Source: Flaccisagitta enflata
Lineage: Eukaryota
Direction: 5' to 3'
NCBI GenBank assembly: GCA_965153355.1
Contig: OZ231126.1
Span: 41,354,001-41,418,000, forward strand
Length of the DNA: 64,000 nucleotides
Shown here: piece after piece, positions 3,048 to 39,132 of the stretch
Position numbering within the stretch: the first letter of the stretch is position 1
How the letters are laid out: every line of letters begins with the position of its first letter
Notes under the pieces: generated by a model
The model's database searches: none
What the model saw: the letters and a program-made list of their open reading frames with translations, nothing else
What the model was told of the DNA's origin: nothing
Program-made: the position numbers and the translations under genes

Positions 3048-3048
<1 letters not shown>

Positions 3049-6004
3049 ACACTGGGCTGAAATCACCACCCAGCAGCACTAACCGGCCAAAACCACCAAT
3101 CACCACCCAGACACCCTATTCCACTATCACACTGGGCTGAAATCACCACCCAGCAGCACTAACCGGCCAAAACCACCAATCACCACCCAGACACCCTATT
3201 CCACTATCACACTGGGCTGAAATCACCACCCAGCAGCACTAACCGGCCAAAACCACCAATCACCACCCAGACACCCTATTCCACTATCACACTGGGCTGA
3301 AATCACCACCCAGCAGCACTAACCGGCCAAAACCACCAATCACCACCCAGACACCCTATTCCACTATCACACTGGGCTGAAATCACCACCCAGCAGCACT
3401 AACCGGCCAAAACCACCAATCACCACCCAGACACCCTATTCCACTATCACACTGGGCTGAAATCACCACCCAGCAGCACTAACCGGCCAAAACCACCAAT
3501 CACCACCCAGACACCCTATTCCACTATCACACTGGGCTGAAATCACCACCCAGCAGCACTAACCGGCCAAAACCACCAATCACCACCCAGACACCCTATT
3601 CCACTATCACACTGGGCTGAAATCACCACCCAGCAGCACTAACCGGCCAAAACCACCAATCACCACCCAGACACCCTATTCCACTATCACACTGGGCTGA
3701 AATCACCACCCAGCAGCACTAACCGGCCAAAACCACCAATCACCACCCAGACACCCTATTCCACTATCACACTGGGCTGAAATCACCACCCAGCAGCACT
3801 AACCGGCCAAAACCACCAATCACCACCCAGACACCCTATTCCACTATCACACTGGGCTGAAATCACCACCCAGCAGCACTAACCGGCCAAAACCACCAAT
3901 CACCACCCAGACACCCTATTCCATCACACTGGGCTGAAATCACCACCCAGCAGCACTAACCGGCCAAAACCACCAATCACCACCCAGACACCCTATTCCA
4001 CTATCACACTGGGCTGAAATCACCACCCAGCAGCACTAACCGGCCAAAACCACCAATCACCACCCAGACACCCTATTCCACTATCACACTGGGCTGAAAT
4101 CACCACCCAGCAGCACTAACCGCCCAAAACCACCAATCACCACCCAGACACCCTCTTCACTATCACACTGGGCTGAAATCACCACCCAGCAGCACTAACC
4201 GGCCAAAACCACCAATCACCACCCAGACACCCTATTCCACTATCACACTGGGCTGAAATCACCACCCAGCAGCACTAACCGGCCAAAACCACCAATCACC
4301 ACCCAGACACCCTATTCCACTATCACACTGGGCTGAAATCACCACCCAGCAGCACTAACCGGCCAAAACCACCAATCACCACCCAGACACCCTATTCCAC
4401 TATCACACTGGGCTGAAATCACCGACCAGCAGCACTAACCGGCCAAAACCACCAATCACCACCCAGACACCCTATTCCACTATCACACTGGGCTGAAATC
4501 ACCGACCAGCAGCACTAACCGGCCAAAACCACCAATCACCACCCAGACACCCTATTCCACTATCACACTGGGCTGAAATCACCACCCAGCAGCACTAACC
4601 GGCCAAAACCACCAATCACCACCCAGACACCCTATTCCACTATCACACTGGGCTGAAATCACCACCCAGCAGCACTAACCGGCCAAAACCACCAATCACC
4701 ACCCAGACACCCTATTCCACTATCACACTGGGCTGAAATCACCACCCAGCAGCACTAACCGGCCAAAACCACCAATCACCACCCAGACACCCTATTCCAC
4801 TATCACACTGGGCTGAAATCACCACCCAGCAGCACCTACCCGTCCAAAACCACCAATCACCACCCAGACACCCTATTCCACTATCACACTGGGCTGAAAT
4901 CACCACCCAGCAGCACTAACCGGCCAAAACCACCAATCACCACCCAGACACCCTATTCCACTATCACACTGGGCTGAAATCACCACCCAGCAGCACTAAC
5001 CGGCCAAAACCACCAATCACCACCCAGACACCCTATTCCACTATCACACTGGGCTGAAATCACCACCCAGCAGCACTAACCGGCCAAAACCACCAATCAC
5101 CACCCAGACACCCTATTCCACTATCACACTGGGCTGAAATCACCACCCAGCAGCACTAACCGGCCAAAACCACCAATCACCACCCAGACACCCTATTCCA
5201 CTATCACACTGGGCTGAAATCACCGACCAGCAGCACTAACCGGCCAAAACCACCAATCACCACCCAGACACCCTATTCCACTATCACACTGGGCTGAAAT
5301 CACCACCCAGCAGCACTAACCGCCAAAACCACCAATCACCACCCAGACACCCTATTCCACTATCACACTGGGCTGAAATCACCACCCAGCAGCACTAACC
5401 GGCCAAAACCACCAATCACCACCCAGACACCCTATTCCACTATCACACTGGGCTGAAATCACCGACCAGCAGCACTAACCGGCCAAAACCACCAATCACC
5501 ACCCAGACACCCTATTCCACTATCACACTGGGCTGAAATCACCACCCAGCAGCACTAACCGGCCAAAACCACCAATCACCACCCAGACACCCTATTCCAC
5601 TATCACACTGGGCTGAAATCACCACCCAGCAGCACTAACCGGCCAAAACCACCAATCACCACCCAGACACCCTATTCCACTATCACACTGGGCTGAAATC
5701 ACCACCCAGCAGCACTAACCGGCCAAAACCACCAATCACCACCCAGACACCCTCCACGGAAGAGCACACTGGGCTGAAATCACCACCCAGCAGCACTAAC
5801 CGGCCAAAACCACCAATCACCACCCAGACACCCTATTCCACTATCACACTGGGCTGAAATCACCACCCAGCAGCACTAACCGGCCAAAACCACCAATCAC
5901 CACCCAGACACCCTATTCCACTATCACACTGGGCTGAAATCACCACCCAGCAGCACTAACCGGCCAAAACCACCAATCACCACCCAGACACCCTATTCCA
6001 TCAC
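3048..6004. repeat. 80-bp tandem array, ~37 near-identical copies
   Basis: Unit CACACTGGGCTGAAATCACCACCCAGCAGCACTAACCGGCCAAAACCACCAATCACCACCCAGACACCCTATTCCACTAT recurs every 80 bp, preceded by (GCC)n. Confidence 0.97.
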
Positions 6005-13392: not shown

Positions 13393-14343
13393 GAAACTGT
13401 TACGTATTACGTCAATAATGACAGCCGCGTTTTCTGTTCGTTCTTGGACGCGTCAAAAGCATTTGACCGTTTGGTCCACTCCGGTCTCTTTTTAAAACTG
13501 ATGGATCGAAAGGTGCCAGTTCCTTTTCTCAATCTCATTGTTTCATGGTACAGCGACCTCAGCTGCCGAGTTAAATGGGCCGACGAATACAGTGATTGGT
13601 TTGCCGTTACTGCCGGCGTACGTCAAGGAGGCATACTTTCACCAGATTTCTATTCCATATACGTGGATGACCTCATCACCAAATTGAGAGAATGCCAAAA
13701 AGGATGCTACTTCCTCACATGCTTTGCTGCCGCCTTCTTCTACGCCGACGACATGGTGATTCTGGCGCCATCTTTACGGGGCCTGAGTTCTCTTCTCAAA
13801 ATTTGCGGAGAGTACTGTAGCGAGTGGGACATTTGTCTCAACGCTAAAAAGTCGAAAAATCTCTATTTTGGAAAGCGAATCAACATCTCTCACGCCATTA
13901 CGTTGAATGGCAACTCGATTGAATGGGTGGATAAATGGGTCTACCTCGGAGTCACCCTCAAAAGTGCAAAAAGTTTTGAGTGCTGCGTCAAAGATAGAAT
14001 CAAAAAGTTCTACCGCTGCGCCAACGCCATCTTCAGGATAGATGGAAGATCAAACGACATGGTAATGCTACGTCTAGTCGAGTCACACTGTGTGCCATTA
14101 ATCACTTACGGAATTGAAATTATCCAAATTTCAAATCGAGATGAGCGTCGACAGTTACGCGTCGCCTACAATTCCCTATTCCGAAAAATTTTCAACTATC
14201 GATGGTCTGAGAGTGTGTCAGCACTGCAGTCATTCCTCTCACGCCCGACATGGGAGCAATTGGTGGAAAAAAGACGAAACAAATTCTTGAAACGAGTGCG
14301 GGAAGCTGACCCGACGCTATTGTCCAATCTGCTCCTCTCATAA
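13393..14343 (+). mobile_element. 5'-truncated non-LTR retrotransposon (LINE), reverse transcriptase C-terminal part (probably CR1/L2/Daphne-like group)
   Basis: Open frame with RT motifs FLDASKAFD, GVRQGGILSP, YADD and YLGV; no endonuclease domain. A probable 3' UTR extends to ~14520. Confidence 0.92.
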
Positions 14344-15084: not shown

Positions 15085-15770
15085 GAATGTTTTTGTTTCA
15101 ATATCGAATGTTTATGTTTCAATATCGAATGTTTATGTTTCAATATCGAATGTTTATGTTTTAATATTGAATGTTTATGTTTCAATATCAAGTGTTTATG
15201 TTTAAATATCAAATGTTTATGTTTCAATATCGAATGTTTATGTTTCAAGATTGAATGTTTATGTTTTAATATCGAATGTTTATGTTTTGATATCAAATGT
15301 TTATGTTTACATATCAAATGTTTATGTTTTGATATTGAATGTTTGTTTTAATATCGAATGTTTATGTTTTAATATCGAATGTTTATGTTTTAATATCAAA
15401 TGTTTGATATCAAATGTTTGTTTTGATATCGAATGTTTATGTTTTGATATCGAATGTTTATGTCTTGATATCGAATGTTTATGTTTTTATATCGAATGTT
15501 TATATTTTGATATCGAATGTTTATGTTTCAATATCAAATGTTTATGTCTTATTATCAAATGTTTATGTTTTAATACCGAATGTTTATGTTTTATTATCGA
15601 ATGTTTGTTTTGATATCGAATGTTTGTTTTAATATGTTTTTGTTTATGTTTATGTTTTAATATGTTTATGTTTTATTATCGAATGTTTATGTTTTGATAT
15701 CGAATGTTTATGTTTTTATATTGAATGTTTGTTTTAATATCGAATGTTTATTTTTTGATATCGAATGTTG
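15085..15770. repeat. 21-bp minisatellite (ATCGAATGTTTATGTTTTAAT)n
   Basis: About 30 degenerate tandem copies, directly visible. Confidence 0.9.
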
Positions 15771-17393
15771 GTCATGTTTTTGAATTTGCTCCCCTGCATC
15801 AACACGGACTAAAACTTCCAGGGGAAGTACCGTTGTAACGTCGCATAATGAATACTGTCATAGTCCTACTACATGTAATTCACAAACCAGCACTTTAACG
15901 GTTTTCTGAATGGCGTAACCAAGGTTACGTGACAACAAACATAAGCATTGATTGACTTGAGTCAAGAAAACGATGTTTAGGTTTCTCTTCACTGTCTTTT
16001 CTCTTTCGAGTAAGTCACTTAATTTGCATAATGCAGAATTATCTTTTTCCGTTTATAAAACAAAATGTAAGAATTTCGCGAGCAAACCCCACAGTAGATT
16101 TTTAGGTATTCATAAATAGACAACATTTTTGTGACTGTGAAACTCGTAAGAAGCTAACGTTGGCTAACGTTTTAAGAAAACTATGAAAATGGTACCAAGA
16201 GACATTACGAGAAAAGTTAAGCACATGTTGGTTTGTCCTAGTAACAAACCACTGTGCGCCGCCGCCGCCGCCGCCGCTGCCTTTGCCTCTACGGCTATCA
16301 CCGTCAATACCGCCACTTCCATCGACTCGTTAAATGTTCCTGCTTCTCCCGCCACCTCCGCCACCACTAACCTGACAGCGACCATTCTCGGTTATTGTTG
16401 TTGCCGCTGCTGTGGTTGTTTCTTTTGCTGTCGATGCTGAGCTGTGGCTGCCGTTGCTGAGTTGCCTGCCATCGTTCCAACAGGCGCGCGTTTGCGTTGT
16501 AGGAACAACCCTAAGATTCCATCATCCAATCATTTTTGCCACATCTTCCATTCACGCCGTCGCGTGGGGAGTCGCCCACGTCTTTCTTACGATTCTCATC
16601 AAATGTTATTTCTCCGTTCAGGCCATTCATGTCTGTTTCACCTCTCGCACACTCAGCAATTCCCGAGGAGGCGTGGAAAGGGTTTCTCACGGTACATTCA
16701 AACTGATTTTACAATAATATCCCTGACGCCGCCTCGTGATTGTGTGCAAGCTACTTGAACTTAAAAGAGCATGCCCGGGACTTTCTAAGGTACATGCTAG
16801 GTGATTCTTGAGAAGAATGATGAAGGCTTCTTAAGCTAGCTGCTAAATGACTCTGAGGGAGCATGCAACGTGCTTTCGAGGATGTCTGCTAAATGATTCC
16901 GCAAGGGAGTACGCAAGGGACTGCTAGGGGTGCATACCAAACAATTTTATGGAAGCCTGCTAGGTGCGCTGGGTTGGATGTGTTTGGTGATTTTTTCATG
17001 TTGGATGGGAGTTCGTGAGATCAAAAATACGGGCAAAAATTATCATGTGATGCGTGTGTCACATGTGAACAGTTTTGGGTAAGCTTGCAGTAGGGATCCT
17101 GTGGTCCTGTGGTCTTCATCAACAAGAGAAGGCTGTAAAGGTTTTCGGTTTTACTATCTAGCTCAAAAGTTTATCACCTTTTTGGGATCGAGTTACTTTA
17201 ATCAATAATTAATGCAAACACATGTGACAAATACATTCAATAATTGGTTTGACCACCTTTGGCATCAGCCACTGCAATCATTTGCCTTGGCATACATCTA
17301 TAGAGAGATGTGAGGTAGAATGGCGTCCTCTTCTTCTAGACCTTGAGGGCGATCGTTTTCTGTCCTGCTGGAGGGAGATAACTTTTTGCATCA

Positions 17394-18118
17394 CACAGTG
17401 GGCTTTTTTAGGCGAACCTTTCTCAAAACCTCCAGAAGCTTCTAACCTAATTTTTTTTGCACAGTTGAACCCTGTATGGGTAATAGATGCCCTAGCAAGC
17501 AAATATATCCAGCTTTATGGGCCCCAGGGGCCCCAAAGGGCCCCATAGGGCCTGAAATCATGTTTTTAAGGAATTTAAGGGTTTTTTCCACTGTTATCAT
17601 TTTCTATTTTGGTTATTTATGGTAAATTTCAACCCTATTAATCTTATAGATGCCCTATCAAGATAAAATTTCCAGTGGTAAGGGCCCTAGGGGCCCCTAA
17701 AGGCCGCAAAAGTAGTTTTTTTAGGCTATATTAAACTTTTTTTGCATAAAATCATGTTTTATTCTTATGTGTAGTGTAAATTTTATCTTTGTTAATGTAA
17801 TAGAGGTTTTACCAAGTAAAATTTTGGGGTGCTATGAGCCCTAGGAGCCCCTAGAGACCGTAAAAGTGGGTTTTTTAGGCAATTTTTAGTTTTTTTTGCT
17901 AACAATCATTGGTTTTTTGTTGTTTACAGTAAATTTTTATGTTGTTAATGTGAAAAAGGTTTTAGCAAGCAAGATCTTAAAATTTCGCCTTTACAAGCAT
18001 CATTTTAGTGTTATGGGCTCAAGGGACCCTAACAATATTTTTTTTGCCTATAGTTCCTATAGTCTCTTTCTCTTTCTCTTTCTCTCTTTCTTTCTTTCTC
18101 TTTCTCTCTTTCTTTCTT

Positions 18119-18161
<43 letters not shown>

Positions 18162-18489
18162 CTCCCTCCTCCTCCTCCTCCTCCTCCTCCACTTTCTTTT
18201 TCCTCTTACAGTCCAACATTTTTCCTTTTAAATCCGTGTCCTAATGTGGCTGTCATCTTAGAGATGTATGAAGTACAGCCAATATTCTCGATTTACTGGA
18301 AATTTGCTGCCACCGCCGCCTCCTCCTCTTCCTCTCCCCCTCCTCCTCCTCTTTCTTTATACAATGCCACAAGTTATCTTTAAAACCAATGTCCTGTTTT
18401 AGCTGTCATCTCAAAGATATATAAAGCTAGGTCATATGCTCAATTTACTTGAGATTGGCTGTTTCCACCACCTCTTATTACTACTCCTC

Positions 18490-18521
<32 letters not shown>

Positions 18522-19399
18522 ATTTTTTAATTAACCATCTCATCTTACATCGTAAACTCTACAAAAGAACAAGCAACAAGACTACACTTTCCTAACAAAC
18601 AATTGCTTTCTAGTAGTAGGGCTTAAATAGATTATTACCAATGGAGCTGGATATCAAATTGCCCTTTTGAGACACGGGAAAATAGCAAGGTCCTATTTCT
18701 CCAAAATGGTGAGAGGTACCCATATATGGAAACAAGTCCCTTGTAGGCCATCACCAAAAGGTACAAATTCACTAAAAAAAGTACCTTAAGTCCCTGGTGT
18801 ACATAGGTAAAAAAAAATAAAACTGTTTTTTTTGCTCTTCCCCCTTCCATAGGATTACAATGGGAAGTTACTCGTTGAATTTTAAAAATTGCATTTTTTA
18901 GTATTGCGCAAAAACTAAGAGAGGTACCCATATATGGAAACCTGATTATGAAACCTAAGGGTCTCCTCTTCAAATTTCATTAATAATATTATCTTAATGT
19001 TTGGGTGTACTATGGTTTAAAAAAAAAAAAGGTTGCTGACCCCCCCTTTTTAATAAGAAATAAGCCTCGCCAGGCGATTTTAGAGCGCTCTAGCCCCCCC
19101 CCCATGAAAAAATCAGCCAAAATTGTGATTGGTATTTTACATACTAACCATTAACTTTCATTTTCAGCCATATTTGCTTCATTTCTTTCACTTTTAAATT
19201 TTGACAAAATTTGCCATTTCAGCCTCCAGAGCCAGAGTCCGGGTGATTACATAGTGGGCACCTACTTCCGGTTAAGTTAGGGTTCTATGGCTGGTTAATA
19301 TCAATCATATAGTTCAAAGATTAGGTTTGGCGTTTTTTGTTTCTCCAGTTTTGGCATAGAAGTGCCCTCTGAGGTACTGAGAAGGGTCGGCCCACAGTG
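17394..19399. mobile_element. Non-autonomous Transib/RAG-like DNA transposon with RSS-like termini
   Basis: Left end CACAGTG, right end (reverse complement) CACTGTG. Perfect 5-bp direct repeat CATCA at 17389-17393 and 19400-19404. A 21-bp subterminal block is shared between the ends (16/21 identical). No transposase ORF. Confidence 0.75.
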
Positions 19400-21679
19400 C
19401 ATCAGGCCCTCATCTCTAAGAGCCAAGATTGAGGCCTTATCATCCAAATATTTGACTTGCATGTCAGAAAACAAAAAGATATTGAAAAAAGAACTAACTC
19501 TGATAAAGATGAAATGAGGCGCAACTTTTCCAGTATGGAGGAGAGAACTGAAAAATAACTAAATACATTTATTCTCGCCATTTTGAATTGAAGAAGCAAT
19601 TTTGTTTTGTGTGTCATTTCTTAATGCTTTGAGATAATTCAACCCGGTTTGTGGCATTCAATGGGAAATTTGTTCCAGTTTCAGAATCTCACAAATTTTG
19701 TATAGAAAATATCATTTGAAATGGAGATATTCTTCAGTTTGTGAGGTGATAAACATATGAGCAAGGTAGTAAACCTTATGTTACGGAAAGTGGCTGTTTG
19801 GGCGGTGGGGGGTGAGGGGTGGGGCACGTCATTGGCAGCGGCGAAGGCAACGGCGCGGCGGCGGGAACGGCGACAGCGGCGGCGGCGACAGTGGCTGCGG
19901 CAGCGGTTCCCCTCCACTTGCTCTTCATTTCTTTCTAACCATCTTTATGATATTATGACAAATGTATCCCATTTCCAAAAGTCGACTTGTGTTGATCCTC
20001 TTTAAAGGTCAACTCTTTCAGATTCCTTCCTTTCTTCCTTCACGCTTTCTTTCGCCTTTTCAATTCCTCTTTTCTTTTTTTCTTTCTTTACTGTCTTTCT
20101 TTTCTTTCTTTTTGTTCATTTCTTTTTCCCTTTTGACTTTTCCTTTCTCCCACTTTTGGGTAGTGTCCCAGAAGGAAAAGAAGTCCTGTAGAACATTGGA
20201 GGACTTTTGTTTGTGCGTCCATATGTTCGTGTGACCCCTTCATCAGGCCTCTCAGGCTCCAACTCTGCCCTTTAGGGCGACAATCAGTCCTCCCAGGCCT
20301 TATATCAGCTCTTTCAGCCCTTAAATCAGCCCTTTGAAGCCTCAAAACCGTCATCTCAGGCCTCAAACTGGCCCCCTCTGGCAACACATCCACTCCCAAG
20401 ACCCCCAGTCAGCCCTTTTATCTCTCGGAAACCCTCTTATCTCCATAATGTCTCCTCAGGCGTTCAATCAGCCCTATCAGGCATTAAAACAATAGGATGG
20501 ATGTATCGACAGACAGATTGGCATATAGACAGATAGTTGGAGCTGCTACCCGGCTTCCTTGCACATGCAATCACAGTCATACAAAATAGGGCCAAAGGTA
20601 TCGCTGTCCACGTATCAACCTTGGGCGACTGGTTCGCTATTTTTCATCATCATCGTCTACTTTCGCCTTCTCTTATTCTACTTTTCTACGTCTTCTGCTT
20701 CTCCTGCTTTTTTTCCTCCTCTGTTTCTTCCTCTTTTTATTCTTTTACTTCTTCTTTTTCTTTCTCTTTTTCTTCTGCTTCTTTTTCTTTTCTTCTTCTT
20801 CTCCTTCTTCTTCTTCTTCTTCTTCTTCTTCTTCTTCTTCTTCTTCTTCTTCTTCTTCTTCTTCTTCTTCTTCTTCTTCTTTTACTTCTTTTCATCTTCT
20901 TCTTCTACTTTATCTTTATTTTTTTCTGTTCTTGTTTCTTTTTCTTTTTCTGTTAATTCATCTTCTCCTTCTTAATTCTATTTCCTAATTATTTTTCTAG
21001 TTCTCGTTCATTTTATTGAACGTGTTTTTCTTTTTCATCACTCTTTTAACCTGTATTTTTTGCACAGACACTTGACTCTACACGTTGCTTTGACGGTCGG
21101 TTTTCGCATTTCTACTCCAGTCCAACCGTCCACAACTGGAGTGCCTTGTTTTGTTCCCTTACGGTCTTTGCCAGCAGTTTTATAGCATCGCCGACCCTGC
21201 CAAATGACCGCCTTTACGCAAGGTAAGGCCTTAACCCGTTTTCTACCTTACCTAACCTTATTCATAAAATACCTTACCTTTCCTGACCTAAGATACGCGT
21301 CCATTATTTCACGAAAATACTCAGCTCCTCTGAATGGTTGACTTCACCCCATGAAAAGAAAACACTTTCCCTGTCTGGATGATTGGCTTCACCCCCTGAA
21401 AAAGCTCTCTCCCCATCTGTGTAGTTTGCATACCCCATGAAAAGAAAACACTTACCCCATCCAAATTGTTGGCCCTTGAAACGGCGCTCGGGGGAGTTTA
21501 TGACCAAAACATTTTTGGGCAAGATTCCCTTCCTTATATGGGCACATCCTTTATTCCCTTATATGGGCATACAAGCGAAAGAAATGAATTCGTGGCGTAA
21601 ATCAAAAGAAGAAAAGGCACAGGCGGGTTTATATGCGGAAACAGAGATAGAGATAGAGAGAAAGCTAGCATGTGCGGGT

Positions 21680-23521: not shown

Positions 23522-24577
23522 TCAAGCATCGACACTACCGATTCCGAGTGCAGCCGCATGTTTTCTGGCTTTCATTCTTAAATCGGCGATAGACGTAGTC
23601 TTATTCGGCTTAAATCCTCCACCTCCACCTTCTTTAGCTCCTTCCTTTCCCTCTCCACCGCTTCCACCACCACCACCTCCTCCTCCAGTAGCCGCATTTT
23701 CATTAGATGCGGCTGCGGCCGCTGCCGCTGCCAAATTGACGGCGGCATTGGCGTAATGTGGATATAACAAATTGAAGGGATGTTGGAGGCTCGCGACGGA
23801 TGCGGGCGGCAAGAGTCCGTGGGGCGGAAGAGGAGGAACGTGTGGGCTGGCGAGCGGGTTGCCGCCGCCACCGCCACCGCCACCGCCACCGCCACCGCCA
23901 CTATGGCTGCTGCTGGGTGGACTTCCGGCTGTGGCGGCGATCGGTGGCGTGAAAGAAAGACTGGCCGCAGCCGCTGCAGCAGAGGAAGAAGGCGTCGTCG
24001 CCGCCACGACGGCAGAGTCAGAAGCTGCTCCTGTCGACGCAGCCCCGGGCGAAGCTGATGATGCCGCCGCCGCCGCTGCCGCCGCAGCTGCCGCTGATAA
24101 TTTAGCGGCGGCGGCAGCTGCGGATGAAGCTAGCGTTGGCGAAGACGGTGTCGGTGACGCCGAGGGCGCCGAACCGGAAGAAGCGGCGGCAGCTGCAGCC
24201 GCGGCGGCTAATAATTGAGCGGCCGCCGCGGTGTCGTAAGGACCGTGAGGATGGGGAGGATGATGATGAGAATGAGGTGGATGAGGACCAGCGAGTGGAT
24301 GCGGACCGGCGCCGGGGCCGAATATAGCGGCGGCGTGGGACCCAAATGGACCGCCCGCGGCGCCCGGGGAGCCACCTCCGGGAGGAGGCGGCGGCAGCGC
24401 CAGACCAGGGTGATGTGGAGGCGGGATGCGATCGAAGGCGGCGCCCGGTGGAGGGCCGCCCATCGCGGCCATCCGCATCGTCGGTAGATTGACGTAAGGC
24501 GCCACGCGGCAGGAATCCAGAGGGTGAGAGCCAGGAGCGCCGGGAGCGCCGCCGAGATGAGCCGCCATCATGCCCAC
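23522..24577 (-). CDS. shox: Shox/Shox2-like homeobox gene, terminal exon with OAR domain
   Basis: TTTTCAG| acceptor, phase 0. Contains the SHOX-family motif CRVAPYVN and the C-terminal OAR motif KTTSIADLRMKARKHAAALGI; TGA at 23522. Confidence 0.93.
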   Translation of the reverse strand: MGMMAAHLGGAPGAPGSHPLDSCRVAPYVNLPTMRMAAMGGPPPGAAFDRIPPPHHPGLALPPPPPGGGSPGAAGGPFGSHAAAIFGPGAGPHPLAGPHPPHSHHHPPHPHGPYDTAAAAQLLAAAAAAAAASSGSAPSASPTPSSPTLASSAAAAAAKLSAAAAAAAAAAASSASPGAASTGAASDSAVVAATTPSSSAAAAAASLSFTPPIAATAGSPPSSSHSGGGGGGGGGGGGGNPLASPHVPPLPPHGLLPPASVASLQHPFNLLYPHYANAAVNLAAAAAAAASNENAATGGGGGGGGSGGEGKEGAKEGGGGGFKPNKTTSIADLRMKARKHAAALGIGSVDA

Positions 24578-24843
24578 CTGAAAACACCCGTTGTAAAAGG
24601 GAGTCTGCGAAAGATCACACATCTAATTGGCGACAGAGTGAGAGGGAAAAACAAATATTTTGGGTGGCGGCGACACGCATTTTGCATGCATTCTGCGTGT
24701 ACAAAATCCATACACGTACACACGCTTAAGCACAAAGACCCAAAACGAAGGGAAACAGACTAACTTACAAACAAATCAGCAAACAAGAAAAATTCTGTAT
24801 ACACATTGGGCAAATATCACAAATCGGTTTGGGTAAAACTTAC

Positions 24844-35893: not shown

Positions 35894-36419
35894 ATCACTT
35901 CGCACGCGTTCGCGCGCCAGTGCATTCGGTAAATTTGGTTTCGTCTACACTACAAATAAAAATTCATAATTCGCAGTTGGTTCCAAAATATTTGAAAAAA
36001 AATTCAGATCGTTTTTCAAAAAAAATTTTAATGCTGAGACGGAACTTGGTTTTCCGGCCTTGGCTAATCAACAATCGTCGAACTAGCTTTTGAAGAGAGG
36101 GGGAGAGAGAGAGAGAGAGAGAGGTTGTGCGATTTCGAGATATAATGAGGGTTCATCCTTTGTAAACTGAAGTTACTCATCGTGAGGTCTTTTAGTTTCG
36201 TTTAAATAAACACGAACGTGTTAAAAACAAATCGAAGCCATTTTCTTTTCGATTCACTTTGAATTTGAAGTGCACAAAGATGCCAAGAAAATAAACCTCA
36301 CTCACATTATGGTTTCATCTTTTTATTATTTCTTTTTCTCACTCACATCAACAATGACAATGCTCACACTGATAAAGTGGCAATTCTAATCCCACTAATC
36401 TTACGACTCAAGTCTTCTA

Positions 36420-37925
<1,506 letters not shown>

Positions 37926-38722: not shown

Positions 38723-39132
38723 CACACTGCCCCAAATCCCACCACCACGAAAAATAAATACCTGTCACCCCCCAATCACCCCCTCATCACCACCAATTCA
38801 CCTACACACTGCCCCAAATCCCACCACCACGAAAAATAAATACCTGTCACCCCCCAATCACCCCCTCATCACCACCAATTCACCTACACACTGCCCCAAA
38901 TCCCACCACCACGAAAAATAAATACCTGTCACCCCCCAATCACCCCCTCATCACCACCAATTCACCTACACACTGCCCCAAATCCCACCACCACGAAAAA
39001 TAAATACCTGTCACCCCCCAATCACCCCCTCATCACCACCAATTCACCTACACACTGCCCCAAATCCCACCACCACGAAAAATAAATACCTGTCACCCCC
39101 CAATCACCCCCTCATCACCACCAATTCACCTA
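38723..39132. repeat. 82-bp tandem array, 5 copies
   Basis: Unit starting CACACTGCCCCAAATCCCACCACC at 38723, 38805, 38887, 38969 and 39051. Confidence 0.95.

Follow-up and report, generated by a model that had tools for sequence, protein, structure and literature searches.

The element and its insertion site

The stretch analysed here, called the window, is 64,000 nucleotides of contig OZ231126.1 from Flaccisagitta enflata (assembly GCA_965153355.1, positions 41,354,001 to 41,418,000), and its subject is an element of 2006 bp (17394..19399, + strand) lying between two copies of the pentamer CATCA (17389..17393 and 19400..19404, + strand). The ends of the element are inverted CAC...GTG termini with heptamers resembling those of recombination signal sequences (RSS), CACAGTG at the left (17394..17400, + strand) and, read inward, CACTGTG at the right (19393..19399, - strand; CACAGTG on the + strand). 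The + strand reads TTTTTG CATCA / CACAGTG GGCTTTTTTAGGCGAACCTTTC TCAAAACCT at the left border and AGGTACTGA GAAGGGTCGGCC CACAGTG / CATCA GGCCC at the right border, the slash marking the limit of the element. With a probability of roughly 0.7 it belongs to a young family of non-autonomous DNA transposons of the cut-and-paste type that is present in many copies and has the end structure of the Transib superfamily, whose transposases are RAG1-like DDE enzymes; this copy was inserted in another repeat with duplication of the 5-bp target CATCA. An earlier note on this DNA had placed the pentamers, the heptamers and the blocks behind them within 17389-19404, and all of them lie where it put them.

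The insertion was delimited with contigs of four public runs (X1 to X4) aligned to positions 16900-19900 of the window at 80% likeness, the search for runs having listed two runs of one organism (X1 and X2) together with many marine metagenomes. An empty site was found in three runs (X1, X3 and X4), in which contigs join 17386 to 19398 and skip 2011 bases, with one contig in X1 (23 letters on the shorter side), one of 328 bp in X3 (record 15, 118 letters) and one of 316 bp in X4 (record 22, 118 letters). Seven letters at this joint (TGCATCA) can be assigned to either side. The 2011 skipped bases are the 2006 of the element plus five, therefore the site is empty with a single CATCA and the target site duplication (TSD) is 5 bp, as the earlier note had claimed. 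A further contig from X2, which connects 17393 followed by GGCC to 19688, is a copy of the flank free of the element. A TSD of 7 bp (TGCATCA) was considered and ruled out by the borders seen in other copies of the family, which fall at 17394 and 19399 and thereby set the duplication at 5 bp rather than 6 or 7; only under the 5-bp reading are the CACs in register. A long terminal repeat (LTR) or other retroelement was likewise ruled out, since the ends are inverted and direct repeats of the long terminal type are absent.

Both borders are also borders of repetition. In X1 the summed contig depth rises from 2520 (17203-17303) to 73700 (17405-17505) at the left and falls from 65325 (19324-19424) to 453 (19425-19525) at the right, summed contig depth being taken just as a sign of many-fold repetition and not as a copy number. 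In X2, 20 contigs part from the window exactly behind 19399 with continuations that are unlike each other (agreement 0.39), and together with the ends of the other copies (8/8 left and 4/4 right) they fix the limits of the element.

Two other joints were seen in the runs. In one contig of X1 (depth 139, shorter side of 30 letters) 17393 is followed directly by 19398, giving CATCA-TG-CATCA, in which two bases separate the two copies of the duplication. This resembles the footprint of excision by hairpin opening (P-nucleotides) and could equally be two leftover bases of the element or a paralogue of the host repeat. Contigs of X1 and X2 (depths 104 and 132) carry a joint between 17415 and 19376 in which the left end's initial ~22-24 bases are fused to the last 22-24 bases of the right end, making up an 'ends only' derivative of 46 bp that resides at another locus.

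Other copies and the ten-base difference between the ends

Further copies of the family were sought by probing a large protein collection with short open reading frames (ORFs) that span the junction of flank and element on either side. The ORF of the left end (window 17228-17545, region 55-106) matched eight metagenome proteins of 61-153 residues that are 86-92% identical over the part belonging to the element (52 residues), and all eight read x-Q-W-A-F-L-G-(K/E)-P-(F/S)-S-K-P-(P/Q)-E-A-S-N-L-I-F-F behind eight unrelated N-terminal parts. In the window the frame at this border is A/CA CAG TGG GCT TTT TTA GGC, such that the codon in front of that for Q has the form xCA, with its first base supplied by the flank. 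The corresponding residues in the eight proteins are S, A, S, T, S, T, S and A, all with xCA codons and followed by Q-W (CAR TGG), and no common residues lie upstream, hence the likeness sets in precisely with CACAGTGG (at the protein level CACARTGG). At window position 17414, K is found in six of the eight other left ends and E (GAA) in the window copy; judged from these translations the family consensus at this spacer position is probably A with the G of the window a minority state.

At the right end the - strand ORF (19304-19558, region 46-85) matched four proteins, all reading x-H-C-(G/R)-P-T-(L/F)-L-S-T-S-E-G-T-S-M-P-K behind four unrelated N-terminal parts, with H-C (CAY TGY) the first residue pair that they have in common. 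In the window H-C-G-P-T-L-L-S-T is CAC TGT GGG CCG ACC CTT CTC AGT ACC, and the likeness begins at CAC. The termini of the other copies are thus compatible with CACARTGG in 8/8 left ends and CAYTGYGG in 4/4 right ends, and the homology that might have run on past the proposed ends, which the earlier note had named as a danger to its claim, starts at the CACs in all 8 + 4 copies and stops at 19399 in the diverging contigs. The + strand ORF of the right end used as a probe gave no candidate in the protein collection; such an ORF would rarely be reported by gene callers because a start codon is absent inside the element. Within the 64-kb window BLAST of both 60-bp ends returned chance matches only, of no more than 14 bases.

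Behind the left heptamer a 22-bp 'spacer', GGCTTTTTTAGGCGAACCTTTC (17401..17422, + strand), is followed by a distal 'nonamer-like' block, TCAAAACCT (17423..17431, + strand), with A at positions 5 and 6. At the right end the 'spacer', GGCCGACCCTTC (19381..19392, - strand), is 12 bp and the distal block is TCAGTACCT (19372..19380, - strand). Both spacers fall within the RSS-type lengths of 23+/-1 and 12+/-1. Global alignment of the two 60-bp ends showed a common CACNGTGGGC, directly followed by a gap of 9+1 (net 10) bases, after which the inverted similarity resumes and runs to about base 55, in agreement with the 22/12 ends and 10-bp offset of the earlier note. The gap corresponds to an extra 10-bp block in the left end, TTTTTTAGGC, which with GGC on either side can be placed at 17404-17413 or equally at 17401-17410 (+ strand). 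Since the extra 10 bp are one helical turn, the left and the right distal block point to the same side of the helix.

The block is translated in frame as A-F-L-G in 8/8 other left ends, in which S-K-P of the distal block is also retained. In 4/4 other right ends H-C-G/R-P-T-L/F-L-S is in frame across the short spacer and L-S-T-S is retained in the distal block, and these ends lack the 10-bp block because such an insert would break the frame; the 20 X2 contigs aligned through to 19399 agree with the short right end. With the block in all eight other left ends and in none of the four other right ends, the 22/12 asymmetry is, as read from these translated ends, a property of the family and not private to the window copy, which the earlier note had raised as a possible objection.

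That this arrangement is more than chance is indicated by two comparisons. When the window was scanned for CAC...GTG pairs 60-8000 bp apart that match at 9/10 or more of their terminal bases and have the same five bases on either flank, this pair alone was found, with 0 or 1 match (mean 0.1) in each of 30 Markov-simulated windows. The continuation behind the gap is 13/18 at an offset of 10, a value attained by 45 of 20000 random pairs with offsets 0-15 all allowed. A relaxed ungapped scan for terminal inverted repeats (TIRs; 12/16) gave as its sole match a GCC-repeat artefact at 18311-19893. Between the left and right ends, the 12 bp separating heptamer and 'nonamer' match at 9/12 and the 'nonamer' itself at 7/9. 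The end pair is therefore an inverted repeat of roughly 50 bp interrupted by a single 10-bp indel, and in this pair the 'nonamer-like' block of the earlier note, which lies 22 and 12 bp from the heptamers as noted, does not stand out as a separately conserved island. In Transib an A-rich block of nonamer type lies about 23 bp from the heptamer, or in some families about 12 bp from it at one end; in the single family compared here the long-end TCAAAACCT (after 22 bp) has A,A at positions 5 and 6 and the short-end TCAGTACCT (after 12 bp) T,A.

What the 10-bp difference means is a separate matter from the identity of the element. There is about an even chance that it is a neutral founder indel, either a deletion in the right end or a gain in the left end between GGC triplets, that is tolerated by the transposase and not required. 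The GGC on each side of the block is as expected for slippage or deletion by microhomology, the similarity of the ends is spread over ~50 bp instead of being concentrated in the 'nonamer', and among copies as close as those recovered (86-92% identity over 52 residues) the 8/8 and 4/4 patterns are expected from common descent from one master. In published work the RAG1L/RAG2L (RAGL) enzymes of invertebrates are argued to rely on the terminal 15-17 bp and to respond relatively little to asymmetry of the TIRs (PMC7204232), and Transib subgroup II is reported to have symmetric and asymmetric ends alike (PMC9435367). Set against a neutral indel are the 10-bp offset, a helical turn in length like that of RSS pairs and of PflRAGL-A (PMC10462144), and the close likeness of the long end to a 23-RSS, with an exact CACAGTG, 22 bp and then CAAAACC. 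The block is moreover old in the family, recurring in internal tandem units diverged by ~25%, and the family nonetheless reached many copies with this layout.

The earlier note had suggested that the cognate transposase may need one long and one short end, in which case a Transib-type transposon would obey a 12/23-like rule; this is rather unlikely. The asymmetry is family-wide, the offset is one helical turn and the extra turn is a T6 tract, all of which would suit such a rule. Intrinsic bending or rigidity is a property of such tracts. RSS12- and RSS23-like ends are present in several Transib families (PMC1131882) and a functional role for the asymmetry has been proposed (PMC8355894). The conservation of the asymmetry in young copies is however uninformative given their common descent, and Carmona 2016 (PMC4840297) implicates RAG2, which is absent from Transib, in the origin of the 12/23 rule.

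Interior of the element and the surrounding window

The left part of the element is an array of four tandem units of ~155-165 bp each (17394..18035, + strand) of which the left terminus is unit 1. Units 2-4 contain degenerate copies of the terminal bases 4-20 (AAAAGTGGGTTTTTTAGGC and the like) without CAC, and as the 10-bp block recurs in these degenerate units it is older than the array. Other copies have the array too, two of the left-end proteins (P0004 and P0007) continuing into the second unit. In the window the array is followed by CT and CCT microsatellites and two ~153-bp units (18040..18530, + strand), which form the part of the element least repeated in the runs. Repetition is highest in the right arm of ~700 bp (18679..19399, + strand), where GAGAGGTACCCATATATGGAAAC occurs at 18711 and again at 18919 as a 208-bp spaced repeat. 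Loose contig ends before 18679 and 18795, each with one consistent sequence, indicate that many copies have other interiors upstream. No ORF with coding potential was found in the element, its interior holding only short, low-complexity or repeat-derived ORFs without family support, and Rfam gave no match in window 17000-19800, in keeping with the earlier description of the element as non-autonomous and encoding no transposase.

The element interrupts a host repeat whose left half is 17152..17393 and whose right half is 19405-19771 (strand not assigned), as delimited from the run contigs. One X2 contig of 754 bp (record 9) holds both halves (17152-17338 and 19568-19731) with ~230 bases between them, 16 X2 contigs diverge before 17152 and the summed depth of the host repeat is far above that of 16900-17101. 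One frame is open across the empty site (...REITFCI/RPSSLRAKIE...); four ORF pieces of this repeat were compared with Pfam and matched nothing.

Among the ten longest ORFs of the window Pfam recorded RVT_1, Homeodomain and OAR above the cut-offs, Zip and PFF1_TM below threshold and no RAG1-type family. The RVT_1 match (E 7.9e-22) is a reverse-transcriptase domain in a 316-aa open frame at 13393-14343 (+ strand), a retroelement fragment. An exon with an OAR motif (23522-24622, - strand) and a homeodomain exon (36417-37925, - strand) probably belong to one paired-class homeobox gene on the - strand; the nearest atlas clusters of these exons are mostly arthropod, with scores below 0.9, and the transposon lies ~4 kb downstream of the OAR exon. 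The window is rich in microsatellites and satellites. Two C/A-rich satellites have a similar unit length and start, one at 3048-6000 with 37 copies of an 80-bp unit (CACACTGGGC..., 98% matches) and the other at 38723-39132 with five copies of an 82-bp unit (CACACTGCCCC..., 100% matches). Near-matches to the heptamer motif number 42, and 37 of them are due to the first of these satellites. A minisatellite with a 21-bp unit, GAATGTTTATGTTTTAATATC, is present in ~33 copies at 15085-15769.

Superfamily, mobilisation and significance

According to Kapitonov & Jurka 2005 (PMC1131882) Transib alone among the superfamilies of eukaryotic DNA transposons has 5-bp TSDs, its TIR consensus is CACAATG-23-AAAAAAATC and its third terminal base is C, that of hAT being G with a TSD of 8 bp. 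The earlier derivation of the element from a Transib or RAG-like family is borne out in so far as the 5-bp TSD and the CAC...GTG heptamer ends match the hallmarks of Transib in that paper, with putative membership in the superfamily assigned from end structure alone. This assignment is the first of several points that weigh against the reading given at the outset. The right-end distal block is not A-rich. TG happens to precede CATCA in the left flank, and the empty site by itself is compatible with a duplication of 5, 6 or 7 bp. The 5-bp TSD is established in one copy, the other 12 copies being represented by one translated end each from metagenome assemblies. The empty-site record 15 of X3 differs from the window by three letters in the left 118 and by 14 letters and nine gaps on the right. 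As the flanks of the element are themselves a repeat, the empty-site contigs may be paralogues of the host repeat and not alleles, in which case they define the borders of the insertion without proving recent movement. Pattern scans of three DNA collections, made with a degenerate pattern covering both end types, yielded no further DNA copy, with 0 matches in viral contigs, 11 in metagenome contigs (all GC-rich and unlike the element beyond the pattern, BLAST of the element against them giving nothing but the 21-base pattern match in one, L009) and one in genome contigs, which lay in a 3.86-Mb prokaryotic chromosome and was taken as chance from the record type alone.

Termini beginning with CAC occur outside Transib too and the element itself encodes no transposase, which leaves some room for another superfamily with such ends (CACTA/Mirage/Chapaev) or for a hAT lineage whose TSDs are short, and the resemblance to RSS would then be a coincidence. 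The CACTA group has TSDs of 2-4 bp, against 5 bp here. The hallmarks of hAT, a TSD of 8 bp and a G in third place from the terminus (PMC1131882), are likewise absent, the TSD being 5 bp and the third base C, and an origin in any of these groups is highly improbable.

Mobilisation by a RAGL transposon instead of a classical single-gene Transib is only marginally less improbable. RAGL families are usually low-copy, whereas the present family is highly repeated. The 5-bp TSD and the CAC heptamer are common to RAGL elements, and non-autonomous RAGL derivatives and asymmetric RAGL TIRs have been reported (PMC7204232, PMC10462144, PMC9435367). PflRAGL-A and other RAGL TIRs in these three papers are also alike to the present ends in a ~10-bp difference in length between the 5' and 3' TIRs (9 bp in AanRAGL). 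The TR2 of RAGL TIRs, 9-10 bp beside the heptamer, however starts A-rich (PMC10462144), while here GGCTTTTTTA and GGCCGACCCT adjoin the heptamers and the start is G-rich at both ends (GGC(T/C)...). Because this A-rich TR2 is absent, Transib proper is the likelier partner, and the present element differs from the RAGL transposons described in those papers also in having neither RAG1L nor RAG2L genes, which in autonomous RAGL elements are convergent, and in its high copy number.

Within Transib, asymmetric 12/23-like TIRs were published in 2005 for five families, TransibN1_AG, N2_AG, N3_AG, Transib5 and Transib2_AG (PMC1131882), which are alike to the present family in the 5-bp TSD, the CAC heptamer and the possession of one RSS12-like and one RSS23-like end. 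The non-autonomous Transib families of the same paper also have no transposase gene and a TSD defined by insertions into other repeats. Compared by description, their hosts are fly or mosquito whereas the present host is a marine animal, the heptamer here is CACAGTG/CACTGTG and not the consensus CACAATG, A-richness is absent from the distal block of the short end and the left terminus is unit 1 of a four-unit array (PMC1131882). Asymmetric TIRs were subsequently reported in all subgroup I and some subgroup II Transibs, with spacers of 4/13 in an algal RAGL (Tao 2022, PMC9435367), and a 10-bp TIR asymmetry in PflRAGL-A of P. flava (Martin 2023, PMC10462144). The 'Transib seed' hypothesis is built on 12/23-like Transib ends (Yakovenko 2021, PMC8355894).

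The ends may also be set beside V(D)J RSS, with which the long end has in common the consensus heptamer CACAGTG and CAAAACC at the place of the nonamer ACAAAAACC, and the two ends the 22/12-bp spacers. The present ends bound a mobile element with a TSD whereas RSS are signals beside gene segments, and the present 'spacers' are homologous to each other (9/12) with T at position 5 of the short-end 'nonamer'.

In the mechanism suggested by what is known of Transib and RAG (PMC1131882, PMC4840297, PMC10462144), a RAG1-like DDE transposase encoded elsewhere would bind both ends and nick at the border between flank and CAC, hairpins would form on the flanking DNA with release of a blunt-ended element, and the element would integrate at a 5-bp staggered cut. 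Such a putative transposase tolerates, at the least, a long end combined with a short one, because the family amplified with this layout. HzTransib of Helicoverpa zea, on which Hencken is said to have worked in 2012, is reportedly the biochemical model for cleavage by nick and hairpin with a 5-bp TSD; it is autonomous and from an insect, whereas the present element is non-autonomous. A bolder proposal, slightly less likely again than the 12/23-like rule taken by itself, is that a marine animal has a Transib-type transposase that is still active and, without RAG2, requires a 22/23-type end together with a 12-type end, that the many young copies with their different flanks would be a natural record of this rule and that the T6 tract would give the bend that HMGB1 supplies on a 23-RSS.

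The family is a further case of an already described Transib layout, and the idea of 12/23-like Transib ends is not new. The bearing on the origin of RSS asymmetry that the earlier note saw in it was therefore overstated, having been published already (PMC1131882, PMC9435367, PMC10462144), and the current picture of RAG origins is unchanged by the present family. A preference of Transib for asymmetric pairs of ends is discussed in PMC8355894, PMC4840297 and PMC10462144, with an experimental answer for a Transib not found in the excerpts of these papers. If the reading as a Transib-type transposon is true, the family would be a clean and abundant natural example of a Transib-like element whose ends resemble RSS23 on one side and RSS12 on the other, and it would lie outside the insects, from which ends of this kind were originally described. 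Its main use would lie in its many young copies as a data set for an in silico census of end pairings and TSDs.

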